Origin: an uncultured bacterium
GTDB taxonomy: Bacteria > Krumholzibacteriota > Krumholzibacteriia > Krumholzibacteriales > Krumholzibacteriaceae
Assembly: GCA_963786935.1 (NCBI GenBank)
Contig: CAWBAN010000001.1
Span: 897,158 to 961,157 of the forward strand
Length of the DNA stretch: 64,000 nt
Reading direction: 5' to 3'
The notes under the pieces are model-generated. The model made no database searches, was not told where the DNA came from, and saw only the letters and a program-made list of their open reading frames with translations. This document shows positions 19,049 through 53,635 of this stretch, piece after piece. The position numbers and the translations under genes were made by a program. Positions within the stretch are counted from its first letter, which is position 1; each line of letters begins with the position of its first letter.

Positions 19049-19292
19049 TCCGATGACCTCCCGATGCGGCGCCCGCTCGGCGCGCGCGGTTCGAACAGCG
19101 CCCCGGCCGGGCGCGGCTTGCATCCACTCCAGCGGCCCCCCATTCTATACGATAGCGCCCGCAGCGACAACATCGCAATGCGCGGGCGTCATCGGCGGCC
19201 GGCGGCTCCCGGATATATGCCTTGACCGTGGCGGCTTCGGGCCATAGCATTAATTGGCTTCGCGCGGAAGCGCCCCGTCAGGAGGATATGCG

Positions 19293-20237
19293 ATGAATGC
19301 GACAATCTCCCGGATCCGACATCGAGGAATAAGCGCGCTCCTTTTGCCGCTGCTCGTTACCACGCTCCCCCCCGCCTCGGGCTGCGTCCCCTCCTCCTAC
19401 CAAGGGGAGCAGGAGCTGGCCGACGAGATCGGCGACGTCGAATATCTCGAGGGCTACGGCGAGTGGTTCGAGGCTCCTCCCTACGGCATGGTGTGGCAGC
19501 CGTTCGTCGTATCGGACTGGGCGCCGTTTTCGCACGGGCATTGGCTCTGGACGGCGGACGGATGGGCGTGGGTGTCCTACGAGCCGTTCGGATGGCTCGT
19601 GTACCATTACGGCTTCTGGGATTTTCGCCCGGATATCGGCTGGTTCTGGATCCCGGGCGACGCATGGTCCCCCGCCCAGGTCGAATGGTACACGTTCGAC
19701 GAATACGCCGCCTGGGCGCCGCTCCCGCCCCCCGACGTGTACTGGCCCGCGCCCTGGGAGCCTTACGATACCCCTGTTTGGATCGTTGTCGGGATCGATG
19801 AGTTCACCGACGACGACGTCGGCAGCCGCCGCATCGCCGATCGTCTCCCGCGCGAGCTCGCCAAGCGCGGCACGAGCCGCGAACAGCCGCCCGACATTCG
19901 CGTCATCAGGGAGCGCGAGAACCGGCGGTTGGAACCCGTGCCGATCCGCAGGGAGCCCGTCGTAATCAGGCCGCAGCGCCCCGCCGCCCCGGAGCGGGCA
20001 AGCGCCCCCGCCGATTCGAGCCTCGAACGGATGATTCTCCCGCGGGAGGACGAGCGCAAGGTGGACAAATACGCGCCCGATATCCGGAGGGATGTCCTCA
20101 CGCCGCGAAAACCGGCGCAGCCGCCGGAGCAGGGACCCGCTCCTCCGCCCGAGCGCAGATCCTCACCCCCGCCGGAGCAGAAGCCGCCCGAGAAAAAAGC
20201 GCCCGAGGACAGTGTGCGGACACTGAAGCGGCGTTGA
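19293..20237 (+). CDS. Trp-rich repeat lipoprotein with Pro/Arg/Glu-rich C-terminal tail (uncharacterized)
   Basis: AGGAGG lies 7 nt upstream of ATG. The lipoprotein signal is MNATISRIRHRGISALLLPLLVTTLPPASGC. The core has W/Y/G-rich repeats (GWAWVSYEPFGWLVYHYGFWDFRPDIGWFWIPGDAWSP), and the low-complexity tail reads PPEQKPPEKKAPE. Confidence 0.6.
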   Translation: MNATISRIRHRGISALLLPLLVTTLPPASGCVPSSYQGEQELADEIGDVEYLEGYGEWFEAPPYGMVWQPFVVSDWAPFSHGHWLWTADGWAWVSYEPFGWLVYHYGFWDFRPDIGWFWIPGDAWSPAQVEWYTFDEYAAWAPLPPPDVYWPAPWEPYDTPVWIVVGIDEFTDDDVGSRRIADRLPRELAKRGTSREQPPDIRVIRERENRRLEPVPIRREPVVIRPQRPAAPERASAPADSSLERMILPREDERKVDKYAPDIRRDVLTPRKPAQPPEQGPAPPPERRSSPPPEQKPPEKKAPEDSVRTLKRR

Positions 20238-20336
20238 TTCGGCCCGCATTTTGCTCTTTTTCGCGTATCGGAATTCTCGTATACTCCGACTTCGATTCAT
20301 GATGCCCCCGCTTCCCGCCTGGAGAGAAGGCCGACC

Positions 20337-21335
20337 ATGGAATGCGCCGTCATAACGACCTACCGGTGCAACGCGCGATGCCGCATGTGCGAGGCGTGGC
20401 GCAATCCGAGCCCCTCGTCCGAAGAGTTCGATCCGGAAATCCTGCGCAAGATACCCGGCGGGATGAAACGCCTCAATATCACCGGGGGCGAGCCGCTCCT
20501 TCGCCGGGATATCGCGCGCATCGTCGAGATCCTCGACGCGAAAACGAAGCGCCTCGAGATCAGCACGAACGGCTATTTCTGCGACCGGCTCGAGGAGATC
20601 GCGCGGAAATTCCCCCGGCTCACGGTCCGCATCAGCGTCGAGGGGCTGCCGGCGACCAACGACGCGCTCCGCGGCATCCCGGACGGCTTCGACCACGCGA
20701 TGCGGTCCCTCCTGCGTCTCAAGCGCCTCGGGCTCGATGACATCGGTTTCGCCATGACGATCTCCGGGGAGAACTGCCGTGATCTGCTCGACGTATACAC
20801 CCTCGCCGCGTCGATGGACGTCGAGCTCGCCAACGCCGTCGTCCACAACTCGTTTTATTTTTTCAAGAGCGACAACGCGATCACGAACGCCGGCGAAGTC
20901 GACGAGGCGATGTGCCGGTTCATCGAGGCGCTGCTGCGCTCCCCGCGCGGCAACCCCCGGAAACGGGTCAAGGATTGGTTCCGGGCGTACCTGAACCTCG
21001 GGCTCCTCGCGCACGTGCGCGGCCAGCGCCGCCCCATCCCCTGCGGGGCCGGCACAGACACCTTTTTCATCGACCCGTGGGGCCGCGTTCTCGCGTGCAA
21101 CGGATCGGCTGAGCCGTGGATCATGGGGGACCTGCGGACGCAATCGTTCGACGAAATCTGGAACGGGGCGAAGGCAGCCGAGATACGAGCGCTCGTCGCC
21201 TCCTGCGGCAGGAACTGCTGGATGACCGGCACGGCGGTGCCGGCGATGCGCCGCGCGCCGCTCAAGCCGGCGCTCTGGGTGATGAAGAACAAGCTCCGCA
21301 TCCTCCGGGGCAAACCGACGACGTGCTCGGCGTGA
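20337..21335 (+). CDS. radical SAM protein with SPASM/twitch-like C-terminal Cys cluster
   Basis: The CxxxCxxC motif sits at residues 10-17 (YRCNARCRMCEAW), with GGEPLL nearby. The C-terminal cysteines (CGAG...F.IDPWGRVLACN...CGRNCWMTG) resemble the auxiliary-cluster motif. Confidence 0.85.
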   Translation: MECAVITTYRCNARCRMCEAWRNPSPSSEEFDPEILRKIPGGMKRLNITGGEPLLRRDIARIVEILDAKTKRLEISTNGYFCDRLEEIARKFPRLTVRISVEGLPATNDALRGIPDGFDHAMRSLLRLKRLGLDDIGFAMTISGENCRDLLDVYTLAASMDVELANAVVHNSFYFFKSDNAITNAGEVDEAMCRFIEALLRSPRGNPRKRVKDWFRAYLNLGLLAHVRGQRRPIPCGAGTDTFFIDPWGRVLACNGSAEPWIMGDLRTQSFDEIWNGAKAAEIRALVASCGRNCWMTGTAVPAMRRAPLKPALWVMKNKLRILRGKPTTCSA

Positions 21336-28285: not shown

Positions 28286-29383
28286 TTACGCCGGCCGGTA
28301 TTCGAAACGAGCCCGGCACGTCCCCTCGCTCGAAACCATGCACGGCCCGTACGGATTTCGCGGCGTGCAATCCCCGCCGAACAGCGGGCACGTCTCCGGC
28401 TCTGCCTCACCGAGAATCACGAGATGGCAGCGGCAGCCCGGCCGGACGTCCACCGCCGCCGGCGGCTCGGGAAGATCGAGCCGGACGGCCGCGTCGAGCA
28501 TCCGGTATTTCTCGCGCAGAACGAGGCCGGATCTCGGAACCGTTCCGATGCCCCGCCAGGGGACGTCCGCCTCCTCGAATAACCGGGCGATCGCCTGCCG
28601 CGCGCGCTCGTTTCCGTCCTCCCGCACCACGCGCCGGTACTGATTCTCCACCGTCCCCTTTCCTCCCCCCGTGGCCTGGGCGAGCAGCTCCCGAATCGCC
28701 CGCATCACGTCGATCGCCTCGAAGCCCGCGATGACCGACGGGATGCCGAACTCCTCCTCGAGGAACGCGTAGCCGGAGCGGCCGATGATCGCGCTCACGT
28801 GTCCCGGAAGGATGAACCCGTCGATCATTCCGGCGCTTCGGCCGATGAGGAACCGCAGGGCGGGAGGCACCAGGCGCAGGGAGGGAACGATCGAGAAGTT
28901 CCGCGGCGGGTCGTCGGCGAGGGTGGCGGCGATCGGCGCCGCCGTCGTCTCGAAGCCGACCGCCATGAAAACGACCTGCTTGCCGGGATTGAGGCGCGCG
29001 AGACGAACCGCGTCGATGGGCGAATACACGACGCGGACGTCGCACCCCTCAGCCTTCGCGCGCTCGAGGGAGCTCTCCGAGGACGGCACGCGGACCATGT
29101 CGCCGAACGTCGCGATCACGACGTCTTTCCGGCGGCCGGCCGCGAGCGCCCGGTCGATGTCGCGCGCGGGGCACACGCACACGGGGCATCCGGGTCCGGC
29201 GACGAGCCGCACGCCCGCGGGCAGGAGCGCGCGCAGTGACGCGCGGCCGATCGTGTGCTCGTGCGTGCCGCAGACATGCATGAACACGAGCGGCCGCGGG
29301 ATGCGCACACCGCGGATATCGCTCGCGAGCGCCCGAACGAGGGCGGGATCGCGATAATCGCCGATGGCGTCGTCGCCGGTCAC
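28286..29383 (-). CDS. hypD: hydrogenase maturation factor HypD
   Basis: It has MHVCGTHE, GPGCPVCV and FETTAA motifs. 365 aa. Confidence 0.9.
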   Translation of the reverse strand: MTGDDAIGDYRDPALVRALASDIRGVRIPRPLVFMHVCGTHEHTIGRASLRALLPAGVRLVAGPGCPVCVCPARDIDRALAAGRRKDVVIATFGDMVRVPSSESSLERAKAEGCDVRVVYSPIDAVRLARLNPGKQVVFMAVGFETTAAPIAATLADDPPRNFSIVPSLRLVPPALRFLIGRSAGMIDGFILPGHVSAIIGRSGYAFLEEEFGIPSVIAGFEAIDVMRAIRELLAQATGGGKGTVENQYRRVVREDGNERARQAIARLFEEADVPWRGIGTVPRSGLVLREKYRMLDAAVRLDLPEPPAAVDVRPGCRCHLVILGEAEPETCPLFGGDCTPRNPYGPCMVSSEGTCRARFEYRPA

Positions 29384-29616
29384 GAGTCCGTCTCCCCCAT
29401 TCCGGCCCGGTATACCTGCCGGAGGAGCTCCAGCGTTTCGAGCGCCTCCTCCGTGTCGAGCTTTTCGATGGCGTATCCCGCATGTATGAGAACGTAGTCG
29501 CCGACCGATACCGTTTCGAGAAGATCGAGCCGGATGCTCTTGCGCACGCCGGCGCTCTCGGCGACCGCGTCGTTGCCGTCGCGTTCAACGATCAGCATCG
29601 GAATGCCCAGGCACAT
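29380..29616 (-). CDS. hypC: hydrogenase assembly chaperone HypC/HupF
   Basis: The 78-aa protein starts MCLGIPMLIV, with the invariant Cys2. I trimmed the listed 208-aa ORF to this Met, because the upstream part is R-rich junk that overlaps hypB. Confidence 0.85.
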   Translation of the reverse strand: MCLGIPMLIVERDGNDAVAESAGVRKSIRLDLLETVSVGDYVLIHAGYAIEKLDTEEALETLELLRQVYRAGMGETDS

Positions 29617-30278
29617 CACCGTCTCCCCGCCGAGGCGGCGAACGCCTCGATCCAGGCGATCCATCGATCGAATCCCGCTCCCGTCGCGCACGATATTTCG
29701 ATGATTTCGAGCTTCGGGTTGATCTCGAGCGCCTCCCGCTTCGCCTTCTCCATGTCGAACGAGACGTAGGGCGCGAGATCGATCTTGTTCAGCAGCAGGA
29801 GCCGCGACTCCCGGAACATGAGCGGGTACTTCTTCGGCTTGTCGTCCCCCTCGGAAACGCTCAGGAGCATGACGCGGGCGTCCTCGCCGAGATCGAACTC
29901 GGCGGGGCAGACGAGATTGCCGACGTTCTCGATGAAGAGCAGATCGATCGAGCCGAGATCGAGCTGGTGGAGCGCGCCGTGGACCATCGCCGCGTCGAGG
30001 TGGCATACGCCCCCCGTCTCGATCTGGTACACGGGCACGCCGAGCGTGGCGATCTTCTCCGCGTCGGTCCTCGTCTGGATATCCCCCTCGATGACCCCGA
30101 CCCGCAGCTTCCCCGCGAGAAGCGGTATGGTCCGGTAGAGGAGCGACGTCTTTCCGGCGCCGGGCGCGCTCATGACGTTGATCGTCGGAACGCGCCGCGC
30201 CCGGAGCATCTCACGGTTCTCCCCCGCGATCGCCTCGTTCCTGCTCCGGAGATCCTCACCGATCCGAATCTCGTGCAT
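29616..30278 (-). CDS. hypB: hydrogenase nickel incorporation GTPase HypB
   Basis: MHEIRIGEDL is followed by a P-loop (MSAPGAGKTSLL) and a CH...C metal site (GGVCHLD). The start was set at internal M61 of the listed ORF. Confidence 0.85.
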   Translation of the reverse strand: MHEIRIGEDLRSRNEAIAGENREMLRARRVPTINVMSAPGAGKTSLLYRTIPLLAGKLRVGVIEGDIQTRTDAEKIATLGVPVYQIETGGVCHLDAAMVHGALHQLDLGSIDLLFIENVGNLVCPAEFDLGEDARVMLLSVSEGDDKPKKYPLMFRESRLLLLNKIDLAPYVSFDMEKAKREALEINPKLEIIEISCATGAGFDRWIAWIEAFAASAGRR

Positions 30279-30298
30279 ACGATTGCTCCCTTTCGCCG

Positions 30299-30673
30299 TC
30301 AGGCGCCCGCATCTTCCGGCCCGCCGGCGGGGTCGCCGACGAGGATATAATCGACTTCCATCTCCCGCCCGGCGAGGATCTCGATATCCCCCGAACCGCA
30401 CGCCGGGCACCGGAAGACGAAATCGGCGGGATTCGAGTGCGCCCCGCACGCCGCGCATCGCGCGCGCAGCCGCACCTTCTCCACCTCGAGCTCCGCGCCC
30501 TCCGCGGCCGTCCCCTTCGACATCACCTCGAAGGCGAACCGGAGGGCGTCCTCGCTGACGCCGGCCATCTCGCCGATCCGCAGATGCACGACGCGCACGG
30601 GCCCTCCGCCTTCGGTCCGCGCCGCGCGGTCGACGATGGCGAGGAGGTCGCTCATGAGAGACGCTTCATGCAC
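30299..30673 (-). CDS. hypA: hydrogenase nickel insertion protein HypA
   Basis: The N-terminus is MHEASL and there are two CxxC pairs (CAACG...CPACG). Confidence 0.85.
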   Translation of the reverse strand: MHEASLMSDLLAIVDRAARTEGGGPVRVVHLRIGEMAGVSEDALRFAFEVMSKGTAAEGAELEVEKVRLRARCAACGAHSNPADFVFRCPACGSGDIEILAGREMEVDYILVGDPAGGPEDAGA

Positions 30674-31172
30674 CGGTGCTTCTCCTCTCCGAGAGGCCCT
30701 TCGAGACTTTCCGGTGCGGCGCGCCCGTGATCTCCCCGACGATTTCGTCGACGAGGGCCGGGATGACGCCGCTCACCGCTTCCGTGCACTCCTCCCCGAG
30801 CGTCAGGCAATCGGCCCCCTGTACCCCGAAGATAACGACTTCCTCGGGCATATGGAACTCCAAACGCCGCCCGAGCGCGAGTGCGGTGACGAGATCGATA
30901 TCGTGGAAGGAGGCGAGGCGAGGGGTGATCCGGATATCGTCGGGCCGCATCCTGAAAACGTCGCCGGGGCGCTCGCCGTCGAGCTGGATCGCGTCGACGA
31001 TGAACGCCCGGTCGTACCCCTTCAGCATTTCGAGGAGATCGAGGCCGGCGAGCTCGGCCTCGCGGACGTCCGCCGCGCCGCGGAGACGCTCCCCGAGGGC
31101 TCGCGCGACGTAGATGCCGACCCCGTCGTCGCGGAGAATCGTGTTGCCGAGCCCGAGCACGATGGTTTTCAC
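30666..31172 (-). CDS. hydrogenase maturation endopeptidase (HyaD/HybD/FrhD family)
   Basis: It has MKTIVLGLGNTILRDDGVGIYV, AFIVDA and EVVIFGVQG. It lies immediately downstream of the large subunit, whose C-terminal extension (after DPCFSCATH) it would cleave. Confidence 0.85.
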   Translation of the reverse strand: MKTIVLGLGNTILRDDGVGIYVARALGERLRGAADVREAELAGLDLLEMLKGYDRAFIVDAIQLDGERPGDVFRMRPDDIRITPRLASFHDIDLVTALALGRRLEFHMPEEVVIFGVQGADCLTLGEECTEAVSGVIPALVDEIVGEITGAPHRKVSKGLSERRSTGA

Positions 31173-31202: not shown

Positions 31203-32663
31203 CTACCTCGAGACGGTCCGGATCGTTTCCCCGGCCGCGTTCCTGATCTCGATCGTGAGCGGCATCTGCCCCGGGAGGCTGTGCGTCGCGCAGCTGAAGC
31301 ACGGATCGTAGATCCGGAACGCCATCTCCACCATGTTGAGAAGGCCCTCCTTGACCTCGCCCCCCGCGCCGATGAATTTCTTCGCCGCTTTCCTGACCGC
31401 CATGGATATGGGCGCGTTGTTGTTCGTCGTCCCGACGATGAGATTCGCCTTCGTGACGATCCCCCGCTCGTCGGTCTTATAGTGATGCGTCAGCGTCCCG
31501 CGGGGCGCTTCGACGATCCCGACGCCCTCCGACGGCGTCGTCGACGGAATCACGCGCACGTTCGGATCGAGGATCTCGTCGTCGGCGGCGAGCTCGGCGA
31601 GCCGTTCGGCCGCGTAGAGGAGCTCGATCAGCCGCGCCCAATGCATCGCCATAAGCTTGTGCACCGGCTTGCGGCCGAAGGTGGCGAACATCTTTTCGTA
31701 GGCCGCCTGCGCCCGCGGCGTCGCCATGCCGTCCGCAACGTTGAAGCGGGCGAGCGGCGCCGCCTGGTACAGCGAGGTCCCCACGCCTTCCTTGAACCCC
31801 TGCCACCCGAGCTTCTTGAGATAGGGGAACTTGAGATACGTGTACGGCTCGACGTGCTCCGCGACGTGGTCGAGATACTCGCGCTCGCGGTATCGGTCGA
31901 TCTCCTTCCCGTCGGGATCCACGACGCGCACCGTGCCGTCGTAGAAGGTGACCCGGTTCTTGTCGTCCACGAGCCCCATGTAATTCGTCACGAGCTCGTA
32001 GCCGTCGCCGAGGATGATGTCGAGGTACGTCTTGTTCTTGAGCACGACGTCGTCGAAGAGCTTCAGCCCGAACTCGCCGAACTGGATGAGACCGCTCGTG
32101 TACGCCCGTATCCGGTCCCGGTCCTCGCGCGCGAGCGGCCGCGTGACGCCGCCGGGGAGGTTCCAGACGGGGTGCGTGGCGCGCCCCCCGATCATCTGCT
32201 GAATCAGCTGGCTGATCTCCCGCTGGCGGATGACCTCGCGGCCGACGTCGATGCCGACCTTGTTCACGAGCCCGAGGATGTTGCGCTCGGCGGGCGGGGC
32301 ATCGGGCCCCACGACGAAATCCGGGGCGGCGAGCGCGTAGAAATGCGCCGTATGGCTGTGGATGTAATGCGCCATATAGTACATCTCGCGCAGCTTGGCG
32401 GCCGCCGCGGGAATCTTCACGTTGTATACTGCATCTACGGCCTTACCCGAGGCCATGTGGTGTGCGGCCGGTCAAACACCGCAGATGCGCGTGACCACCC
32501 GAGGGACCTCCTCGACGGGAAGGCCCTCCACGAACTTCTCGAATCCCCGGAGCTCCGGGATCTGGAGGTACGCGTTCTCGACGGCGCCCTCGTCGTTCAA
32601 GAAGATCATGATCTTGCCGTGGCCTTCCAATCTGGTGATCGGGTCGATCGCGATGCGCTTCAT
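31203..32663 (-). CDS. mvhA: [NiFe]-hydrogenase large subunit, MvhA/VhuA (group 3c-like), with in-frame UGA (putative selenocysteine) at 32472-32474
   Basis: Two listed ORFs are contiguous in the same frame and separated only by TGA. The first is the tail of 32472..33662, ending ...MKRIAIDPITRLEGHGK...VPRVVTRICGV. The second is 31203..32456, and it continues PAAHHMASGK... through to ...RIYDPCFSCATHSLPG. Read through, the N-terminal Ni motif is R-I-C-G-V-U-P-A-A-H, which equals RxCGxCxxxH. The C-terminal motif is DPCxxCxxH. Total 486 codons. An annotator ignoring Sec would call a 63-aa fragment plus a 417-aa ORF starting at M 32456. Confidence 0.75.
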
Positions 32664-33613
32664 GCTCTCCTCCTCTTCAGTATCGAAGCAGCGAGGCTGA
32701 ACCGGTGAAAGGTCCTCAGCGGATCCACGACCGTGTCCAGCGTCGCGTTGATATCCCGCTCCTCCTTCGCCTCGATGACGGAGGCGAGCGCGCTCACCAT
32801 CTTGATGCCCTGATCGGGAACATCGTCGAGCGGGCCGTAGCATCCCCGGCACGGCGTCCACGATTTGATGCAGCGCGAGCCGCAGCCGGACCGCGTCGCG
32901 GGGCCGAGGCAGATGAATCCCTGCTCGAGAAAGCAGATTTCCGGCTCGGGGAGCTTTTCGTGGGTCCGGTAAATCCGCTTGATCGTTTTTTCGCTCTTCT
33001 TTCGCTCGCATTCGTCGCAGAGCGCCCGATCCCCCGCCCCGATCACGGAGCCCTTCTTCGGCAGCATGTCGTCGGCGAGGAGCCCGAGCGCCGAATAGAT
33101 TTGGAGCGAGGCCGGCGGACAGCCCGGGATCGTGTAGTCGACGTCGACGACCTGATCGAGCGTCTTCACCGAATTGTAGAGACGCGGGAGCTCGAGATCG
33201 TATCCGCCGTCCTTCGATTGCTCGAGCGGCAGCACGCCCCCCTCGTTCGTCGTGGACTCGGATTCGAGGTACACGCGCTTCATGATCTCGTCCCGCGTGT
33301 ACACGTTCGCGAGCCCCGGCACGCCGCCGAGCTGGGCGCACGCGCCGAGGGCGATCATGGCCTTCGCCTTCTTCCGCAGGAGCAGCGCGATCTCCTCGTT
33401 CTCGGAATTGCGCACCCCGCCGCTGAAGAGCACGGCGTCGAGGTAACCGTCCTTCATGGCGCGAACGTCGCTGTATTTGAAATCCATCGCGACGGGCCAG
33501 AAATAGATGTCGGCGAGGTCGGCGATCTCGAGCAGCTTCTCGTGCGTGTCGAGAATCGCCACGTCGCATCCGCCGCACGCCGCGCCCCAGTATATCCCGA
33601 TCTTGAGCTTCAT
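32660..33613 (-). CDS. mvhG: [NiFe]-hydrogenase small subunit, MvhG-type
   Basis: It has IYWGAACGGCDVAIL, TIPGCPP and distal cluster Cys residues. The 4-bp overlap with mvhA is ATGA. Confidence 0.85.
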   Translation of the reverse strand: MKLKIGIYWGAACGGCDVAILDTHEKLLEIADLADIYFWPVAMDFKYSDVRAMKDGYLDAVLFSGGVRNSENEEIALLLRKKAKAMIALGACAQLGGVPGLANVYTRDEIMKRVYLESESTTNEGGVLPLEQSKDGGYDLELPRLYNSVKTLDQVVDVDYTIPGCPPASLQIYSALGLLADDMLPKKGSVIGAGDRALCDECERKKSEKTIKRIYRTHEKLPEPEICFLEQGFICLGPATRSGCGSRCIKSWTPCRGCYGPLDDVPDQGIKMVSALASVIEAKEERDINATLDTVVDPLRTFHRFSLAASILKRRRA

Positions 33614-34092
33614 CTCGCCTCTCCGGTTGATGCCTGCCGTTCATCGCCGTGATGCGCGACATCCGTTTTCATGCTCTCGAAGAGCGATTCCTTGATCCCG
33701 AGCGGGCCGAGCTTCCTGATTTCCTCGGTGAATTCGTCGACGACGTGCCCGAACCGCTCCCCTTCCGACGCCGAGACCCACTCGAGGCGCACGCGCTCCG
33801 GCTCGATCCCGTACTGCGGGAGCACGCGCTTGAGCATGAGATAGCGCCGGAGCGCCTTGTAGTTGCCTTCCTGATAATGGCAGTCGCCCGGATGACACCC
33901 GCCGATGAGCACGCCGTCCGCCCCCTCGAAGAGCGCCTTGACCACGAACACGGGATCGACGCGGCCGCTGCACATGACGCGGATCGAGCGGATGTTCGGG
34001 CTGTACTTGACGCGCGCCGTTCCGGCGAGATCCGCGCCCGTGTACGTGCACCAGTTACAGAGAAAACCCACGATTCTCGGTTCGAACGCCAT
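33610..34092 (-). CDS. mvhD: methyl-viologen-reducing hydrogenase delta subunit MvhD
   Basis: It has FLCNWCTYTGADLAG, CSGRV and GGCHPGDCHY, which is the MvhD/FlpD [2Fe-2S] signature. Confidence 0.85.
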   Translation of the reverse strand: MAFEPRIVGFLCNWCTYTGADLAGTARVKYSPNIRSIRVMCSGRVDPVFVVKALFEGADGVLIGGCHPGDCHYQEGNYKALRRYLMLKRVLPQYGIEPERVRLEWVSASEGERFGHVVDEFTEEIRKLGPLGIKESLFESMKTDVAHHGDERQASTGEAR

Positions 34093-34118: not shown

Positions 34119-36098
34119 TCACCCGGCGGACAGGATTCCCTCGATCTCGGCGAAGATCTGCCTGTTGCTGAAATGCTTCGCCCGTATCGCGTTGCTCGGG
34201 CAGGCGGCGACGCACGTGCCGCATCCCTTGCAGAGCGCCTCGTTGATGATCGACACCTTCTTCTCCTCGTCGAACCGGATCGCGAGATACGGACAGAGGT
34301 TGTTGCAGATCCGGCATCCGGAGCATTTCTCCTCCTCGATCTCCGCCGTCGCCGATTCGATTTCGATCTTCTCGCGCATGATCATCGAGAGCACGGCGCT
34401 CGAGGCCGCCGAGGCCTGCGCCACCGTGTCGGGGATGTCCTTCGGCGACTGGCACGCGCCAACGATGAAGACGCCGTCAGTCGCGGTCGACACGGGACCG
34501 AGCTTCGGATGCTTCTCGATGAGGAACCCGTCCTTGCCGATGCTCACGCTGCACATCTTGGCGACCTCGGCGAGCCCTTTCGGCGCCTCGAGGCCCGTGC
34601 AGAGCACGACCATATCGACGGGGATCCGCCGGACGACGCCGACGAGCGTGTCCTCGACGCGCACGACGAGCTTCCCCTGCTCCCCCTCGTGGATCGGCAT
34701 GTCGGTCACTTCGCCGACCTTGCCGCGGATGAACCGCACGTCCTCGCCGAGGAGCCGGTCGTAGAATTCCTCGTATCCCTTCCCGAAGCAGCGGAGATCG
34801 ATGTAGAAGTTGTACACCTCCGCCTTCGTCTTTTCCTTGATGAGATGGGCGAACTTGAGCGCGTACATGCAGCAGACGCGCGAGCAGTACTCGTGGTAAT
34901 CCTTGTCGCGGCTCCCGATGCAGTGGATGATGCCGATCGCCTTCGGCTCGGAGCCGTCGGCGAGGACGATCTTCCCGTTCGTGGAGCCCGCCGCGCAGTT
35001 CATCATCTCGAACTCGAGCGCGGTGACGACGTTCGGGAGAATCCCGTAGCGGTACCGCTTCATGACGGACGGATCGAACGTCTGGAGCCCGGCGGCGATG
35101 ATGATGTTGCCGACCTCGAACTCGTGGATCCGGTCCTCCATGTCGAACTTGATCGCGTGCCGCTCGCAGACCTTCTCGCACGTCCTGCACTTCCCCTTCT
35201 GGAAATAGGTGCAGGTGCTCCGGTCGATGACCGGCACCGCGGGAACGGCCTGCATGAACGGCATGTAGATCGACGTCGTCGGGCCGAGCGAGAGCTTCTC
35301 GTGCGCGTTGCCCTTGCGCGGAACCCGTGTGCCGGGGCATTTCTCCCAGCACATCCCGCACCCGTTGCAGAGCTCGCGGTCGACGTACCGCGCCTTCTCG
35401 CGCACCTTCACCTTGAAGTTGCCCACGAACCCGCTCACCTCGGCGAGCTCGGAGTACGAAAGCAGCGTGATGTTCTTGTGCTGGCCGACCTGCACCATGC
35501 GCGGCGTGAGAATGCACGCGGCGCAATCGAGGGTCGGGAACGTCTTGTCGAATTTCGCCATGTGGCCGCCGATGGACGGATCGCGCTCCACGAGGACGAC
35601 CTCTTTGCCCGCCTCGGCGAGATCGAGCGCCGCCTGAATGCCGGCGATGCCGCCGCCGATGACGAGGGTCCGCGGATTGATCGGAACGACCCGCTTCTCG
35701 AGCGGCTCGAGCCACGTCGATCGCGCCGTCGCGGCCGCGATGAGCGCCTTCGCTTTCTCCGTGGAGGCGGCCTCGTCGAGATGCACCCAGGAGCATTGCT
35801 CCCGGATGTTGGCCATCGTGAAGAGGTACGGATTGACGCCGGAACGCTCGCATACCTTCCGGAAGGTGTTCTCGTGCATGAGCGGCGAGCAGGAAGCGAC
35901 GACCACGCGGTCGACGACGCCCTCCTTGATGTCCTTCTCGATCATCGCCTGGCCGGGATCCGAGCACATGAACTTGTAATCGCGCACGATCGCCACGTTC
36001 TCGAGCCCCTTCGCGAACGCGACGACCGCGTCGATATCGACTTTGCCGGCGATGTTGGTGCCGCAATGACAGACGTACACTCCGATGCGCTCAGCCAT
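34119..36098 (-). CDS. hdrA: heterodisulfide reductase subunit A (HdrA; FAD, multiple [4Fe-4S])
   Basis: The 659-aa protein has YVCHCGTNIAG, an FAD GxGxxG (IGGGIAGIQAALDLAEAG), ferredoxin motifs CNGCGMCWEKCP and CSGCRICNNLCP...CKGCGTCVAACP, and a CCG-like segment. Confidence 0.9.
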   Translation of the reverse strand: MAERIGVYVCHCGTNIAGKVDIDAVVAFAKGLENVAIVRDYKFMCSDPGQAMIEKDIKEGVVDRVVVASCSPLMHENTFRKVCERSGVNPYLFTMANIREQCSWVHLDEAASTEKAKALIAAATARSTWLEPLEKRVVPINPRTLVIGGGIAGIQAALDLAEAGKEVVLVERDPSIGGHMAKFDKTFPTLDCAACILTPRMVQVGQHKNITLLSYSELAEVSGFVGNFKVKVREKARYVDRELCNGCGMCWEKCPGTRVPRKGNAHEKLSLGPTTSIYMPFMQAVPAVPVIDRSTCTYFQKGKCRTCEKVCERHAIKFDMEDRIHEFEVGNIIIAAGLQTFDPSVMKRYRYGILPNVVTALEFEMMNCAAGSTNGKIVLADGSEPKAIGIIHCIGSRDKDYHEYCSRVCCMYALKFAHLIKEKTKAEVYNFYIDLRCFGKGYEEFYDRLLGEDVRFIRGKVGEVTDMPIHEGEQGKLVVRVEDTLVGVVRRIPVDMVVLCTGLEAPKGLAEVAKMCSVSIGKDGFLIEKHPKLGPVSTATDGVFIVGACQSPKDIPDTVAQASAASSAVLSMIMREKIEIESATAEIEEEKCSGCRICNNLCPYLAIRFDEEKKVSIINEALCKGCGTCVAACPSNAIRAKHFSNRQIFAEIEGILSAG

Positions 36099-36975
36099 TG
36101 TTCGCTCCCTCGAATATCCGTTTCATGGGCCCGGTGAGCTTGACCGCGAGCCGGCCGAGGCCGAGATCGCGGAGCGGCAGACCGAGCGAAACGCCGATCA
36201 GCTGGGTGAAATAGAGAACGGGAATCTCGAATTTCGTTTTGAAGAGGCGGTTGACCTTGCCCTGGTACACGTCGAGGTTCATCTGGCAGAGCGGGCAGAT
36301 CGTCACGATGCAGTGCGCGCCGTTCTGCTGCGCGTCCAGGAGGAGGTTCTTGCAGAGCCGGAGCGCGAGATCCTCCTGCGTGCCCATGAGCGACGCACCG
36401 CAGCACGCCGTTTTCATCCGGTAGTCGACGCACTCGCCCCCGAGCGCCTCGACGAGCCTGTTCATCGTCGTCGGCTCGTCCGGATCGTCGAAGCCCGAAT
36501 CGGGCCTCACGATCTGGCATCCGTAGTACGGCGCCACCTTGAGGCCCGCGAGCTTCTTCTTCGTGAGCGAGGCCATCTTCTCGTAGCCGATGTCGTTGCA
36601 GATAACGTCGAGCAGATGCCGCACGCGCAGATTTCCGCTGTAGCTGAGCCCCCCCGCCTCGAGCGCCTTTCCGATCTTTACCCGAAGATCGGGGTAGTCG
36701 GCGAAGTAATGATTCGTCTTGTTGAGCACCGTGTAGCACGCGCTGCACGGCGTGACGACGTCGCGGTGGTGCTTCTCGGCGATCGCGAGATTGCGCGCCG
36801 AGATGGCGAAGCTCATGAGCTCCTTGACCGACATGTACGCGGTCGCGCCGCAGCAGTTCCAGTCCTCGAGCTCCTCGAGCTCGAGCCCCAGCGCGGGCGC
36901 GATCGCGGCGATCGAGTCGCGGTAGATGTTCGCGGTCGCGTTGACGGAGCATCCCGGATAGTAGGTGTATTTCAT
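36091..36975 (-). CDS. hdrB: heterodisulfide reductase subunit B (HdrB), two CCG domains
   Basis: It has YYPGCS...WNCCG...CSACY and YYGCQ...CCGAS...CPLCQ. Confidence 0.9.
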   Translation of the reverse strand: MKYTYYPGCSVNATANIYRDSIAAIAPALGLELEELEDWNCCGATAYMSVKELMSFAISARNLAIAEKHHRDVVTPCSACYTVLNKTNHYFADYPDLRVKIGKALEAGGLSYSGNLRVRHLLDVICNDIGYEKMASLTKKKLAGLKVAPYYGCQIVRPDSGFDDPDEPTTMNRLVEALGGECVDYRMKTACCGASLMGTQEDLALRLCKNLLLDAQQNGAHCIVTICPLCQMNLDVYQGKVNRLFKTKFEIPVLYFTQLIGVSLGLPLRDLGLGRLAVKLTGPMKRIFEGANNG

Positions 36976-37551
36976 CTAGATCTCCCCGAGCTCGTCCACT
37001 TTCCTGAGTATCTTCTTGAGCTGATCCATGTTTTTCATTCGGTGCGGCAGCAGCGGCAGGCGCTTGTTCACGAAAAGCGTCCAGCCCTGCGGCACGAACT
37101 TGAAGGCGTTGAAGAGATCGGCCTCGAGAATGTAGCGCGCCATCAGCTCCGTCTCGTGGTTGCGGCCGTACGTGTTCACCATCCGCGCGAAGTTCTTGGA
37201 AAGAACGACCGCTTTCTTGCCCTTCGTCTTGCCCTCCTTGACGGCGAGCCGCTTCAGCGCGTACATGACGTCCGTGATCTTGATATCCTTCGGGCACCGG
37301 ACCGCGCACGTGTAGCAGGAGGAACAGAACCAGATCGTGTTGGACGACAGCACTTCATCCCGGAAGCCCGCCCTGATGAGGGAAAACATCTTGCGGGGGC
37401 CGTAATCCATCACGTAGCTGAGCGGGCAGGAGCTGCTGCACGTTCCGCATTGGATGCATTTCTTGATCTCCCTCCCTCCGGGCAGCGCGTAGATCTCTGA
37501 GAGGAAATCATGATCAAGCTTGTATTCGGCGACAATGTCCCGGTCGAGCAT
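36976..37551 (-). CDS. hdrC: heterodisulfide reductase subunit C (HdrC), 2x[4Fe-4S]
   Basis: It has CIQCGTCSSSCP and CSSCYTCAVRCP. Confidence 0.85.
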   Translation of the reverse strand: MLDRDIVAEYKLDHDFLSEIYALPGGREIKKCIQCGTCSSSCPLSYVMDYGPRKMFSLIRAGFRDEVLSSNTIWFCSSCYTCAVRCPKDIKITDVMYALKRLAVKEGKTKGKKAVVLSKNFARMVNTYGRNHETELMARYILEADLFNAFKFVPQGWTLFVNKRLPLLPHRMKNMDQLKKILRKVDELGEI

Positions 37552-42205: not shown

Positions 42206-43639
42206 TCAGCGGGCGATGTACTGCCCGATATCGATATCCCGGACCGCCTGATCGATAATGCGCTCGATCCGCCACTTCCGCTCGTTCGTCGAGGGATCGA
42301 TCTCGTTGAGATCGATGACGGCCTTTCCGTCCGCGCCGTTTCCCGACGCGTCGCTCAGGATGCGCGCGCACGGCAGGGAGCCGCTGCCGCCGCTCATGCC
42401 GATGACGATCACCGTTTCCCCCGTGGCCAGCCGCAGCATGCTCCCGATCGGAATGTTGCCGAGCGCGCGCAGGAACGACGCGAAGTAATCCGGGCTGAAT
42501 TCGCTGCCGCTCCCCCGTTCCATGAGTTTGATCGCCTGATACGGGCTGATCTGCCGGCGGTACGGCCGCCTCGTCGTCAGCGCGTCGTAGCTGTCCGCGA
42601 TGCGCACGATCTCGCTCGCCTTGTGCGGTTCGAATCCCTCTTTCGGCGACGGATAGCCGGCGAGATCGTGGCGCATATGGTGCTCGTACGCCACGCGGCG
42701 CGACACGAGATCGAGTCGCTCCTCGCGCAGGATCCGCTCGCCGTCGACGGGATGACGTTTCATCGCCTGCCATTCGCTCGGCGTGAGCCGCCCCGCCTTG
42801 TGAATGACGGCGCGCGGCACATAGATCTTCCCGATGTCGTGGAGAAGCGCGGCGTGCGCCACGGCGTCGACGAATTCGTCTCCGAGCCCGAGATTCCTCG
42901 CGATCGCCGCCGAAATGACCGCCACGTTCACCGAATGGGTGAACGTGTAATCGTCGTATTCGCGGAGGGAGTCGAGGAGCAGAACCGTCGCCGTGCCTCC
43001 ACGCTCCCGCTCGATGACCTCGACGATCTTCGCGCGGGCCGTCGTCCCGTCCGCGGACTGAATCTTCTCGAGCGTGCCGAGGATCCCCTGGACGACCGTG
43101 CCGATCGACCCCTGTTTGCCGGCCCCGTTCGCGGGCTTCGGCGGCCGCCGTTCGCCGGGTTCCCGGGGCCCCGCCCCGGCGCTTCGCTCGGGCGCGGATG
43201 CGCACGCGTCCCGTCCATGGCGCACCCGAATCTTCTCCATCCGAGCGACGGGGCTTCCGTCACGCTTCATCCCGCCGGTCGCGAGGAGCCCGGCGAGAGC
43301 CGCGATATCGCTCTTCTCGACGCCGCTCATGAATTCCATCTCGCCGATCCGCTGTCTCACGAGCGCCTCGCGGAGCAGATGAACGGCTCTATCCTCGGTG
43401 TCGGACAGGTCGAGCTCGTAATTGAGCCAGCATATGCGGCCGTTCGCGTGGATCAGCCTGACCGATTTCTTTCGCTGCAACGCGCTGTCGATATGCATGA
43501 ACGCCGATCCGAGAACGCGCTCGACCGACGGGTGCCGCGCCGGGAAGAGACGCGTCTGCAGCACGAGACCCGCGAGGCTCTCCACGACCTCCCTGAACTG
43601 CTGGAATTCGTGCGGAAGCGCGCTGTGAACGGCCTTCAT
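42206..43639 (-). CDS. HD-GYP domain c-di-GMP phosphodiesterase
   Basis: It has HSVNVAV...HAALLHDIGKIYVP...HH...GYP. The start was set at M118 of the listed ORF, since the upstream part is S/R-rich junk. Confidence 0.8.
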   Translation of the reverse strand: MKAVHSALPHEFQQFREVVESLAGLVLQTRLFPARHPSVERVLGSAFMHIDSALQRKKSVRLIHANGRICWLNYELDLSDTEDRAVHLLREALVRQRIGEMEFMSGVEKSDIAALAGLLATGGMKRDGSPVARMEKIRVRHGRDACASAPERSAGAGPREPGERRPPKPANGAGKQGSIGTVVQGILGTLEKIQSADGTTARAKIVEVIERERGGTATVLLLDSLREYDDYTFTHSVNVAVISAAIARNLGLGDEFVDAVAHAALLHDIGKIYVPRAVIHKAGRLTPSEWQAMKRHPVDGERILREERLDLVSRRVAYEHHMRHDLAGYPSPKEGFEPHKASEIVRIADSYDALTTRRPYRRQISPYQAIKLMERGSGSEFSPDYFASFLRALGNIPIGSMLRLATGETVIVIGMSGGSGSLPCARILSDASGNGADGKAVIDLNEIDPSTNERKWRIERIIDQAVRDIDIGQYIAR

Positions 43640-43835
43640 CGACGGCGGCCCCTTTCCCGGTCCCGATTTCGAGCGAAGACGGATCGATCCGCTTTCCACG
43701 GTGCAAATTTCGTACCGCCGGCACGCTCCGAGGCGCGCCCGCGGCCCACGAACGCACGATCCCATTGATTTTTCGAGCGATTTAGCGCACGATCGCGCGT
43801 GTACTGCGGCGTTCCGCCGCGAGAGGAGCCGTCCC

Positions 43836-45860
43836 ATGAGCCCCGGCCGCGCGCTGACGATCTCGCTCGTCTTTCTCCTGCTTACGTCAGGCGGATGCTC
43901 GTTCCGTCCCGGGGGGACGCGCGCCGTCGAGGAAGACGATTTCATCGAGCCTGTCGAGATCGAGGGAAAGCGCGAGGTCTGGAAGGACATCGCCGAGATG
44001 AAGGAGCGCGTCGACGCCGACTACGGAAACGTCGAGCTCCATCGGCAGCTCTCCGTCCTCTACCGGCTCGCCGGCACGCCCCGCGCCCGCCTCCTTTCGT
44101 CCGAGGAGATCGACAAGGCGATAGCGCTCGATCCCGAGAATCCCCTCCTGCACGTCGAGCGCGGGCTCACGCTCGTCGCCCGGCGGTTCGTCGGAGAGGC
44201 CGAAGCCGCGCTCGTCCGGGCGACCCAGATCGATCCGAAGTGCTTCGAGGCGTGGTTTCAGCTCGGCCGTCTCGAGCAGTACGAATACTACAAGACCATG
44301 TGCTTCGTCGACCATCTCGTGAAGGCGATCGAGTATTTCGAGAAAGCCTTCCGGATCGACAAGAAGAACGAAGAGACGCTCGAGAACCTCGCCTATCTCT
44401 ACTCGTGCCGCCAGATGTACCAGACCGGGCTCAAGTACGCCTCGCGGGCCGTTCAGTACTATCCCAAGAGCACGGAGGCGCAGCTCGCCTGCGCTATGCT
44501 CTACACGAGGCGCAAGGATTTCGAGAAGGCGCGGACCGCCTACGCGAACGCCTTCCTGCTCATGACGGACGAGGAGCGCCATCCCTACGACGATATCTCG
44601 CCGCTCCTCGACGCCGAGGAGCGGGAGCTCTACCTCGGCTGTTCGGACGCGAAGCGGGAGGACTGGAACCGCCGGTTCTGGATGGAGAACGATCCGACGC
44701 CCGCGACCGAGATGAACGAGCGCCAGCTCGAGCATTTCGCGCGCGTGACGATCGCGGACAAGGCCCTGTCCGACGAGCGCCGGAACTCGCGCGGCGCCCT
44801 GACCGACCGCGGCGCCACCCTGATCCGTTTCGGCCTCCCCGACCAGAAGCTCTACGATCTCGGCAGCAGCGGCACCTCCGGGGGCTGGGTCGTATGGCAG
44901 TACGCGGCCGGGAAAGGCTATTTCAACATGTATTTTCATGACGAGTTCCTCAACGGCGACTACCATTTCCCCATCAGCGATTATTACGGGGAAGCCTCGC
45001 TCAGGCTCCTGAACGCCGTTCCGCAGCGCTATACGTTCCCGATCCCCTACGCCTCGTTTCCGATCAGCTTCGAGGTCGCGGAGTTCCGCGGCGCCGACGA
45101 TCGCACGCGGCTCGAAATGTCGGTCGCCATCCCCGACTCGCTCCGGAGAACGCCGGGGGCCTCATGGGACATGTTCGTCACGTTCTTCGACGGGGACTGG
45201 AACCGCCTCTCCCGCGACCGGCTCCCGCTCGTGACCGACAGTCTCCCCGTCATCGAAAAAGGGGGCGGACGCTACCGCGTATCGAACTTCTCCATCGAAA
45301 TGCTCCCCCGCCCCATGGAATGCGCGTGCGTGCTCGAGGTGGTGAGCGACAAGGACCGCCGCAAGGGCACGCGCAGAATCCCGATCGAGATCAGGGATCT
45401 GTACGGCCGCTCGCTCAAGATCAGCAGCATCAAGCTGGCGCTGCCGGGCGCGCCGGGTTCGTGCTCGACCATCCTCGATCCCATTCCGCTTTACCGGGAG
45501 AAAAGCGCGCTCTGCATCGCCTACGAGGTGTACAACCTGCAGCTCGACGCCGGGGGCAGGTCGCGCTATCGCGTGAGCTACGCCATTCGCAAGCCCCCCG
45601 CGGACGACGAGAGAACGAGCGAGAGCATCAAGAAGACCCTCGCGTACATGTGGTCGAGCATGCGGGGGGAAAAGGGGAAGGACAAGCCCTATATCGAGAG
45701 CAGCATCGAGCAGAGCGTCGGCGCGGGAACGGCCGCCGATAACCTGCAGATCGATATCGGGGCCCTCGAGAAAGGCGTGTATATGCTCGTTCTCGGCGTG
45801 GAAGACCTCGCTTCGGGCCAGGTCGCGGCCGAGAGCAGAATCTTCACGATCAGCGAATGA
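43836..45860 (+). CDS. GWxTD domain-containing lipoprotein with N-terminal TPR region
   Basis: The lipoprotein signal is MSPGRALTISLVFLLLTSGGC. TPR-like helices occur through residue ~250. A GWxTD-type segment (RGALTDRGATLIRFGLPD...GWVVWQY) follows. Confidence 0.75.
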   Translation: MSPGRALTISLVFLLLTSGGCSFRPGGTRAVEEDDFIEPVEIEGKREVWKDIAEMKERVDADYGNVELHRQLSVLYRLAGTPRARLLSSEEIDKAIALDPENPLLHVERGLTLVARRFVGEAEAALVRATQIDPKCFEAWFQLGRLEQYEYYKTMCFVDHLVKAIEYFEKAFRIDKKNEETLENLAYLYSCRQMYQTGLKYASRAVQYYPKSTEAQLACAMLYTRRKDFEKARTAYANAFLLMTDEERHPYDDISPLLDAEERELYLGCSDAKREDWNRRFWMENDPTPATEMNERQLEHFARVTIADKALSDERRNSRGALTDRGATLIRFGLPDQKLYDLGSSGTSGGWVVWQYAAGKGYFNMYFHDEFLNGDYHFPISDYYGEASLRLLNAVPQRYTFPIPYASFPISFEVAEFRGADDRTRLEMSVAIPDSLRRTPGASWDMFVTFFDGDWNRLSRDRLPLVTDSLPVIEKGGGRYRVSNFSIEMLPRPMECACVLEVVSDKDRRKGTRRIPIEIRDLYGRSLKISSIKLALPGAPGSCSTILDPIPLYREKSALCIAYEVYNLQLDAGGRSRYRVSYAIRKPPADDERTSESIKKTLAYMWSSMRGEKGKDKPYIESSIEQSVGAGTAADNLQIDIGALEKGVYMLVLGVEDLASGQVAAESRIFTISE

Positions 45861-53580: not shown

Positions 53581-53635
53581 CAATGGTTTGATGTGCGGAC
53601 GGATTGAATTTTCGTAGCCGGGAGGTCAGCGCGAA

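Follow-up and report, generated by a model that had tools for sequence, protein, structure and literature searches.

Introduction

In the large subunit of [NiFe]-hydrogenases, the second cysteine of the N-terminal nickel-binding motif bridges Ni and Fe, as given in PMC13582414 and PMC8020662 and as is well established for the [NiFe] site. Selenocysteine (Sec) in such motifs has been described only a few times. A new Sec within a CxxU motif of FrhA was found in Olavius symbiont metagenomes, the report leaving unspecified which of the Ni-binding motifs was meant (Zhang & Gladyshev, 2007; PMC1976440). Takano et al. (2026; PMC13582414) cite Baltazar et al. [quoted passage not shown] (2021; PMC8020662) instead give the purported natural Sec examples as C579, the C-terminal bridging cysteine, and so differ from that account. 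Takano and coworkers described N-terminal Sec systematically in Group 4 hydrogenases, where the variant amounts to ∼0.2%, and reported that Sec in Group 3 is mainly C-terminal. A review (PMC13188914) lists MvhA, VhuA and VhuU only as UxxC. The engineered Escherichia coli Hyd-1 variant C79U was active and outperformed the three other single Sec variants, retaining 13% of the native H2 oxidation activity; its KM for H2 was lowered and its tolerance to O2 did not improve (Evans et al., 2021; PMC8020662). Here, we describe an mvhA-like gene for a [NiFe]-hydrogenase large subunit in which an in-frame UGA occupies the codon of the N-terminal bridging cysteine. The gene lies in a 64 000-nucleotide (nt) stretch of DNA, referred to below as the window, from an uncultured member of the Krumholzibacteriota (GenBank assembly GCA_963786935.1, contig CAWBAN010000001.1, positions 897,158 to 961,157).

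Codon 64 of this gene is very probably read as Sec by SelB-dependent insertion directed by a selenocysteine insertion sequence (SECIS), which would make mvhA one continuous selenoprotein gene. In the proposed mechanism, a mini-SECIS (U-GGCC-U/CGGGUA/A-GGCC-R) that begins 16 nt past the UGA would recruit SelB·GTP·Sec-tRNASec to the ribosome, Sec would be inserted instead of termination, and the product would be a 486-residue large subunit with a selenolate as the N-terminal Ni–Fe bridging ligand. Binding by SelB and incorporation of selenium are what we infer from the position of the UGA, the hairpin that tracks it, the protein-level selection across it and the operon in which it is found. A first-pass annotation made from the DNA letters had described N-terminal Sec as an unusual ligand arrangement. 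Unusual it is, but it is not unprecedented, given the reports of Baltazar et al. (2011), as cited in PMC13582414, and of Zhang & Gladyshev (2007; PMC1976440).

Gene frame and protein identity

The mvhA-like gene occupies 31203..32663 on the minus strand and runs from an ATG at 32663–32661 to a TAG at 31205–31203, giving 486 sense codons. The only internal stop is the TGA at 32474–32472 (minus strand), codon 64, in the context R-I-C-G-V-*-P-A-A-H-H-M-A-S-G-K-A. Retranslation of this frame bears out the first-pass annotation, in which the UGA had been read through to join two open reading frame (ORF) fragments, 31203..32456 and the tail of 32472..33662, into a 486-codon MvhA. A strong Shine–Dalgarno sequence, GAGGAGGAG, precedes the true start at 32667..32675 (minus strand), and the mvhG stop and mvhA start share an ATGA at 32663–32660.

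When residue 64 is taken as Cys, the full-length protein matches solved VhuA (9sfi_g) and MvhA (5odc_F) from end to end, both with E ∼ 1e-114. Residue 64 coincides with the second Cys of RICGIC in both structures and the alignment is unbroken across the TGA, so the assignment of the candidate Sec codon (32472..32474, minus strand) to the second Cys of RxCGxC, as made in the first-pass annotation, holds. The best NCBIfam model is VhuA (NF041785) at 423 bits, which is under its archaeal equivalog cut-off of 800. In the alignment with E. coli Hyd-1, residues 17–140 of 3uqy_L correspond to query residues 2–125, an offset of +15 that equates C61 with C76 and U64 with C79. By homology, residue 64 of the window enzyme would therefore take the bridging position. 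The first Cys of the motif, Cys61 (TGC, 32481..32483, minus strand), is a terminal Ni ligand and is Cys in 163/163 homologues.

The C-terminal Ni-binding motif, at 31281..31307 on the minus strand, reads DPCFSCATH, all Cys as previously annotated, and is followed by a 25-residue extension, as expected for cleavage by a maturation protease. The other three ligands of the Ni site thus stay Cys (C61, C455 and C458). The trait of canonical [NiFeSe] enzymes, Sec as the first residue of a C-terminal DPUxxC motif, is absent from the window protein, and the all-Cys DPCxxC is likewise present in 52/53 of the related loci with TGA at codon 64; in the remaining locus no such motif was detected, and the contig of at least one locus of this set (L014) stops before the mvhA C-terminus. 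The pattern R-I-C-G-V-U instead fits the N-terminal CxxU type, in which Sec would replace the second Cys of RxCGxC and the three other ligands are Cys. On these alignments, we assign the enzyme as a bacterial Mvh-type, group 3c-like large subunit with both Ni-binding motifs. The nearest genome records are metagenome-assembled genomes (MAGs) of Krumholzibacteriota at 90–92% identity.

Recurrence of the in-frame UGA

The DNA of 160 related loci was fetched and codon 64 was mapped by alignment, with 163 related sequences in the count. The codon is TGA in 53 of these, TGC in 78 and TGT in 32; we refer to the genes as TGA-type and Cys-type. The TGA variant makes up about one third of the nearest 163 sequences; 49 of its sequences are distinct, and they span at least four phyla. 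Its hosts include MAGs of Krumholzibacteriota/Latescibacteria type, Ca. Desulfopertinax, Peptococcaceae, one Myxococcales MAG and many Dehalococcoidia, as well as the cultured Bacillota Desulfotruncus alcoholivorax DSM 16058 (NZ_AUMW01000038.1) and Desulforudis sp. Tu-874 (NZ_CP187479.1; complete genome). The upstream segment of 63–64 codons is intact in all TGA-type loci, and neither UxxC nor UxxU forms were seen among the loci compared. At the protein level, ∼63 of the best 120 clusters are 417- or 418-residue proteins that start at the same Met70 (MASGKAVDAVY), while the full-length 486-residue relatives carry Cys at position 64.

These counts bear on the most prosaic explanations of the UGA, namely a sequencing or assembly error or a genome-wide reassignment of the codon. 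Prior probability in a high-GC MAG is all that speaks for them, and we regard them as having a negligible chance of being correct. Error is refuted by two independent Logan assemblies with identical TGA and flanks (L001 and L002, from read sets ERR10755939 and SRR17477873) and, besides the window and these two, by 50 further loci with TGA at codon 64; a TGA/TGC polymorphism, which the first-pass annotation had kept in view, is excluded by the same observations. Reassignment is refuted by the stops of the 46 genes inferred in the window, 32 of which are TGA (eight are TAG and six TAA). Since TGA is an ordinary stop here, any recoding must be local and site-specific. Looking through the window for further ORFs interrupted by a TGA gave no useful information, as long spurious open frames occur on every strand at 64% GC.

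Two groups of related loci deserve separate mention. At L007, a TGA-type mvhA that is Krumholzibacteriota-like (77% identity) lies on a contig, DATKWS010000035.1, whose label is 'Patescibacteria group bacterium'. Over 84 nt around codon 64 this locus is identical to metagenome locus L087, and the contig is probably mis-binned. The Bacteroidota-type loci (e.g. L033–L038, L041–L043 and L130–L141) form a large Cys-type clade with K-I-C-G-V-C-P-G-C-H-H, in which the first Cys follows Lys rather than Arg and an additional Cys lies two residues past the second; none has TGA.

Selection across the UGA

Nonsynonymous and synonymous differences (pN and pS) were computed among 51 TGA-type genes. Five codons, 65–69 (P-A-A-H-H; 32457..32471, minus strand), separate the UGA from the annotated ATG, and the conserved His of RxCGxCxxxH is among the residues they encode. 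Their pS is 0.73 and their pN 0.067 (pN/pS of 0.09), with first and second positions invariant and third positions variable, which indicates purifying selection; these codons are therefore translated. For codons 2–63 the ratio is 0.18 (pS of 0.76), similar to that of the rest of the gene, and downstream of the UGA it is 0.22.

An alternative is that the UGA terminates translation, leaving a 63-residue peptide and a separately started 417-residue fragment, or a pseudogene. Gene callers side with this view: public calls, those of NCBI included, cut mvhA into 63-residue and 417-residue products (e.g. MCX5753823.1), an ATG is available 15 nt past the UGA, and a genuinely split large subunit exists in Methanococcus (VhuA and VhuU). 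Termination would, however, drop the essential bridging ligand and leave the selected PxxHH codons untranslated. Codon 70, where the second product would have to start, is ATG in 36 of the 51 TGA-type genes and CTG or TTG in the remaining 15 (11 and four, respectively), and no ribosome-binding site precedes it among TGA-type genes, whereas a strong one precedes codon 1. The N-terminal 63 codons are as conserved as the remainder, and the hairpin goes with the UGA and not with the ATG. The selection on codons 65–69, the variation at codon 70 and the missing Shine–Dalgarno sequence together refute the conserved two-gene arrangement that the first-pass annotation had offered as a competing possibility, and a pseudogene is ruled out because the arrangement has been kept in several phyla even though synonymous sites have diverged to saturation. 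We consider termination very improbable and read-through of codon 64 the better account.

SECIS-like hairpin downstream of the UGA

A mini-hairpin, 5'-U-GGCC-U/CGGGUA/A-GGCC-G-3', lies at 32438..32455 on the minus strand, corresponding to nt 20–37 counted from the U of the UGA. As defined by consensus folding and conservation, it consists of a stem of 6 bp capped by a loop of 6 nt, the second of which is G. The first-pass annotation had noted a slightly longer form at 32437..32456 that encloses the ATG from which the ORF finder began the downstream fragment. This stem-loop, AUGGCC/UCGGGUAA/GGCCGU at 32456–32437, is indeed seen in the sequence and in the minimum-free-energy fold, and the ATG at 32456–32454 falls inside it; its extra A–U pair exists in the window and is not conserved. 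An Rfam scan of the window at gathering thresholds returned two tRNAs only and no SECIS-type family.

The association of the hairpin with the UGA is close, and the recurrence of the two together lies well outside what chance would give. The motif GGCC-N8-GGCC, which is unique within the window, occurs at the fixed offset in 52/53 TGA loci compared with 10/110 Cys loci (Fisher p = 4e-31). The encoded peptide does not account for this difference, as seen in a same-peptide control: among loci that encode ASGKA, the codons GCC-UCG-GGU-AAG-GCC are used in 32/32 TGA loci and 0/42 Cys loci, the latter having 38 differing codon combinations. In TGA-type genes, third-position entropy is ∼0 at nt 21, 24, 27, 33 and 36 past the UGA, compared with 0.4–2.0 in Cys-type genes (1.8–2.0 at nt 24, 27 and 36), and at nt 30 it is 0.59 versus 1.77, while third positions flanking the hairpin are equally variable in the two sets. 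Accordingly, pS for the hairpin codons, 70–75, is 0.07 in TGA-type and 0.76 in Cys-type genes. This freezing of synonymous sites, confined to TGA-type genes, strongly supports the earlier interpretation of the hairpin as a bacterial SECIS.

RNAalifold yields a single consensus helix that pairs nt 20–25 with nt 32–37 around the loop C-G-K-G-Y-A. Pairing of this helix holds in 288/288 cells (48 distinct sequences), compared with 0–51% in slid controls. All stem variation is pairing-neutral: the outermost pair is U20·G37 or U20–A37 in 24/24 and a G–C pair is replaced by G·U once. G is invariant at loop positions 2 and 4, the former in agreement with the bacterial SECIS consensus quoted in PMC13582414.

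The loop also overlaps a residue that differs between groups. Residue 73 (32447–32445) is Cys (UGU or UGC, in ASCKA) in all TGA-type Dehalococcoidia (e.g. L025, L030, L108 and L142) and Gly (GGU) in the other TGA-type genes; the Cys64-type relatives of the Dehalococcoidia have Thr, Ala, Val or Ser at this position and never Cys. From this distribution, the SECIS loop appears to dictate amino acid 73 of MvhA. Near-intact hairpins with a mutated loop or stem are found in the Cys-type loci L100 (TGT, AUGGCCUCGGUUAAGGCC), L091 (TGC, UUGGCCGCGGGUAAGGCA) and L051. These look like fossil SECIS elements from recent Sec-to-Cys switches or else pre-adapted sequences.

Sec decoding and evolution of the two forms

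The other genes of the operon provide a reference for Sec use. TGA occurs at the position of Cys66 of the window MvhD in 20 related loci, 15 of them with the mvhA TGA, and at the position of Cys195 of the window HdrA in nine related loci, seven of them with the mvhA TGA. A hairpin follows each of these codons at a distance from the UGA similar to that in mvhA. We take the two positions to be the classical Sec sites of these families; the organisms concerned, Desulforudis included, therefore decode Sec, and they carry the same mvhA hairpin. In the window, mvhD and hdrA are uninterrupted and have Cys at both sites, in line with the earlier remark that they use Cys where some relatives use Sec.

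Sec use is mosaic within the hdrA-mvhD-mvhG-mvhA operon (e.g. L022, L030, L032, L044, L119, L142, L144 and L157). Five loci combine a Sec-type mvhD with a Cys-type mvhA and, counting loci with mvhD on the fetched contig, a Cys-type mvhD accompanies the mvhA TGA in 22, the window among them. In hdrA of Dehalococcoidia (L030, L032, L119, L142, L144 and L157) the element has the form UGA-N15-AUGGCCUCGGUGAGGUCAC, and it has AUGGCCUCGG in common with the mvhA element at the same offset, nt 19–28. The occurrence of AUGGCCUCGG in both genes suggests a common SelB preference or the recruitment of a similar motif twice in one operon. The obvious GGCCUC/GAGGUC hairpin of hdrA is not the minimum-free-energy structure given by RNAfold for a 51-nt context.

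A neighbour-joining tree interleaves Sec-type and Cys-type genes with at least 11 state changes, a count that is indicative given the roughness of the tree, and some Sec/Cys gene pairs are 88–89% identical. Interleaving of this kind is typical of Sec/Cys pairs. The Krumholzibacteriota Sec-type mvhA clusters with Bacillota Sec-type genes, which suggests lateral transfer.

Several points weigh against Sec insertion at codon 64. A Pfam scan of the ∼46 genes in the 64-kb window found none of selA, selB and selD, and ARAGORN found no tRNA-Sec in the window, nor in the 162 fetched loci. A weak test by tblastn, with E. coli SelD and SelB as queries, likewise gave no match in the window and all loci. 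In the Krumholzibacteriota loci mvhA is the sole TGA-containing gene seen, mvhD and hdrA having Cys, so that for this lineage the Sec reading would rest on the identical hairpin and the signatures of selection. The hairpin is short, the fold energy of the single 81-nt sequence is unremarkable (z = -0.64) and another structure competes with the hairpin in the 51-nt context from the window; moreover, the near-invariant stem shows no double compensatory changes among 48 distinct sequences, its support being conservation and not covariation. As the hairpin is thermodynamically unremarkable alone, the evidence for it is comparative. Finally, the drop in activity of Hyd-1 C79U to 13% (PMC8020662) puts the selective benefit of a bridging Sec in doubt.

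The same SECIS/SelB route could also insert Cys, by way of a Cys-charged allo-tRNA of the tRNA-ReC type, and the product would then be an ordinary all-Cys [NiFe] enzyme. This caveat, raised for the N-terminal UGA of Group 4 hydrogenases (PMC13582414), also applies here, since sequence data alone do not separate Sec from SelB-dependent Cys insertion and the Krumholzibacteriota operons offer no second UGA-using gene. On the other hand, organisms with UGA at the classical Sec sites of mvhD and hdrA carry the identical hairpin, and a UGA with a frozen hairpin would bring no obvious gain over TGC, which is one mutation away and common in relatives. Allo-tRNAs of the tRNA-ReC type are, in addition, rare. 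We therefore regard Cys insertion as improbable, though less so than termination, and retain Sec as the residue most likely to be inserted at codon 64.

Operon and gene neighbourhood

The window mvhA belongs to a one-strand cluster, hdrC-hdrB-hdrA-mvhD-mvhG-mvhA-endopeptidase-hypA-hypB-hypD, identified with Pfam and NCBIfam models. Upstream of mvhA on the minus strand are mvhG (32660..33613; hydrogenase small subunit, Pfam Oxidored_q6 and NCBIfam VhuG), mvhD (33610..34092; Pfam FlpD, with Cys66), hdrA (34119..36098; domain searches and locus alignment, with Cys195), hdrB (36091–36975; Pfam CCG/NCBIfam HdrB) and hdrC (36976–37551; Pfam Fer4_8/NCBIfam HdrC). Downstream, a block of maturation genes spans 28286..31172 on the same strand and consists of the endopeptidase (30666–31172; Pfam HycI), hypA (30299–30673; Pfam HypA), hypB (29616–30458; Pfam cobW) and hypD (28286–29383; Pfam HypD). 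Short overlaps are also found at mvhD/mvhG (33610–33613) and hdrA/hdrB; together with the ATGA at the start of mvhA, the overlaps along the operon suggest translational coupling. The enzyme is most likely the H2-oxidizing module of a cytoplasmic electron-bifurcating complex of the HdrABC–MvhADG type, in which, by homology to the solved Hdr–Mvh complex (5odc), oxidation of H2 would be coupled to the reduction of ferredoxin and a disulfide.

Elsewhere in the window, and unrelated to mvhA, two radical-SAM/SPASM-domain genes lie on the plus strand at 20238–21335 and 53618–55033, one of which adjoins a DUF6600 gene (19254–20237) and a glycosyltransferase gene. The stop-to-stop frames of an HD-domain gene (42206–44020, minus strand) and a TPR gene (43629–45860, plus strand) overlap by ∼390 nt; their true starts are probably further in.

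Implications

The N-terminal CxxU kind of motif is thus known, if barely documented; how frequent it is in Mvh-type enzymes, how far it extends across phyla and that its carriers share a mini-SECIS seem not to have been documented in the literature searched. We lean, with some reserve, towards the broader view that a [NiFeSe] class with bridging selenium is common among bacterial Hdr-linked Mvh-type enzymes and is kept by a dedicated 18-nt mini-SECIS. If so, surveys that list MvhA only as UxxC and Group 3 Sec as C-terminal miss the bridging class, and a bridging selenolate would have a selectable catalytic advantage that was not revealed by Hyd-1 C79U. If the UGA encodes Sec, selenium would sit on the Ni–Fe bridging ligand and not, as in the well-studied [NiFeSe] enzymes, on the terminal, proton-relaying ligand. 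The role of selenium at the bridging site has so far been approached only through the engineered Hyd-1 C79U; the genes described here would supply natural, evolutionarily optimized templates, and two of their carriers are in culture.

There are also consequences for annotation. Every public gene call that we inspected for TGA-type homologues was split or truncated, and surveys of hydrogenases and selenoproteomes that rely on such calls therefore under-count these genes; they may also record the catalytic subunit as one that has no N-terminal Ni-binding motif. The short SECIS, invariant across phyla, is a handy search handle and a clean case of an RNA signal that constrains protein sequence.

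Comparison with known systems

As in the earlier reports of CxxU motifs, the candidate Sec stands in place of the second Cys in a Ni-binding CxxC of the large subunit, with a predicted role as the Ni–Fe bridge, and the host is a bacterium with an operon of the hdrA-mvhD-mvhG-mvhA type. Those reports cover one to three sequences and are not known to include a SECIS or evolutionary analysis, whereas the present set contains 49 distinct sequences that share a mini-SECIS and come from four or more phyla.

The Group 4 CXXU proteins of Takano et al. (2026) and the window MvhA have the candidate Sec at the homologous bridging position and were both found by reading truncated annotations through a UGA. 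In both, Sec and Cys forms are distributed sporadically across phyla, the SECIS shapes the encoded residues, and a conserved G of the apical loop is lost in the Cys-type relatives. The Group 4 enzymes are membrane-bound and energy-converting, whereas the window MvhA is predicted to be cytoplasmic and belongs to an Hdr–Mvh operon, with the Sec form making up about one third of the nearest 163 sequences.

The Vhu enzyme of Methanococcus (VhuA/VhuU) belongs to the same protein family as the window MvhA. Vhu has Sec as one of its four Ni ligands, as is proposed for the window MvhA, and in both cases the partner proteins MvhD/VhuD and HdrA can be selenoproteins. In canonical Vhu and in the group 1a Hys enzymes of Desulfovibrio and Desulfomicrobium, Sec is the U of the C-terminal DPUxxC motif and serves as a terminal Ni ligand with a role in proton transfer; the window MvhA, in contrast to these canonical [NiFeSe] enzymes, has DPCFSC and would use Sec as the N-terminal bridging ligand. 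The archaeal Vhu SECIS is located in the 3' untranslated region, whereas the putative SECIS of the window is of bacterial type and within the coding region.

E. coli Hyd-1 C79U has Sec at the same structural position as U64. It is an artificial variant of a group 1d O2-tolerant enzyme, with Sec introduced through UAG and EF-Tu; the natural bridging-Sec enzymes are presumably co-adapted to Sec.

SelB binds the minimal upper stem-loop of the bacterial SECIS. Like the SECIS of E. coli fdhF, the mvhA element is a hairpin directly 3' of the UGA, within the ORF, with G or GU in its apical loop. It differs from the fdhF element in being much shorter, with 6 bp and a 6-nt loop, in having neither a conserved lower stem nor a bulged U, and in a stem that begins 16 nt, rather than ∼11 nt, past the UGA.

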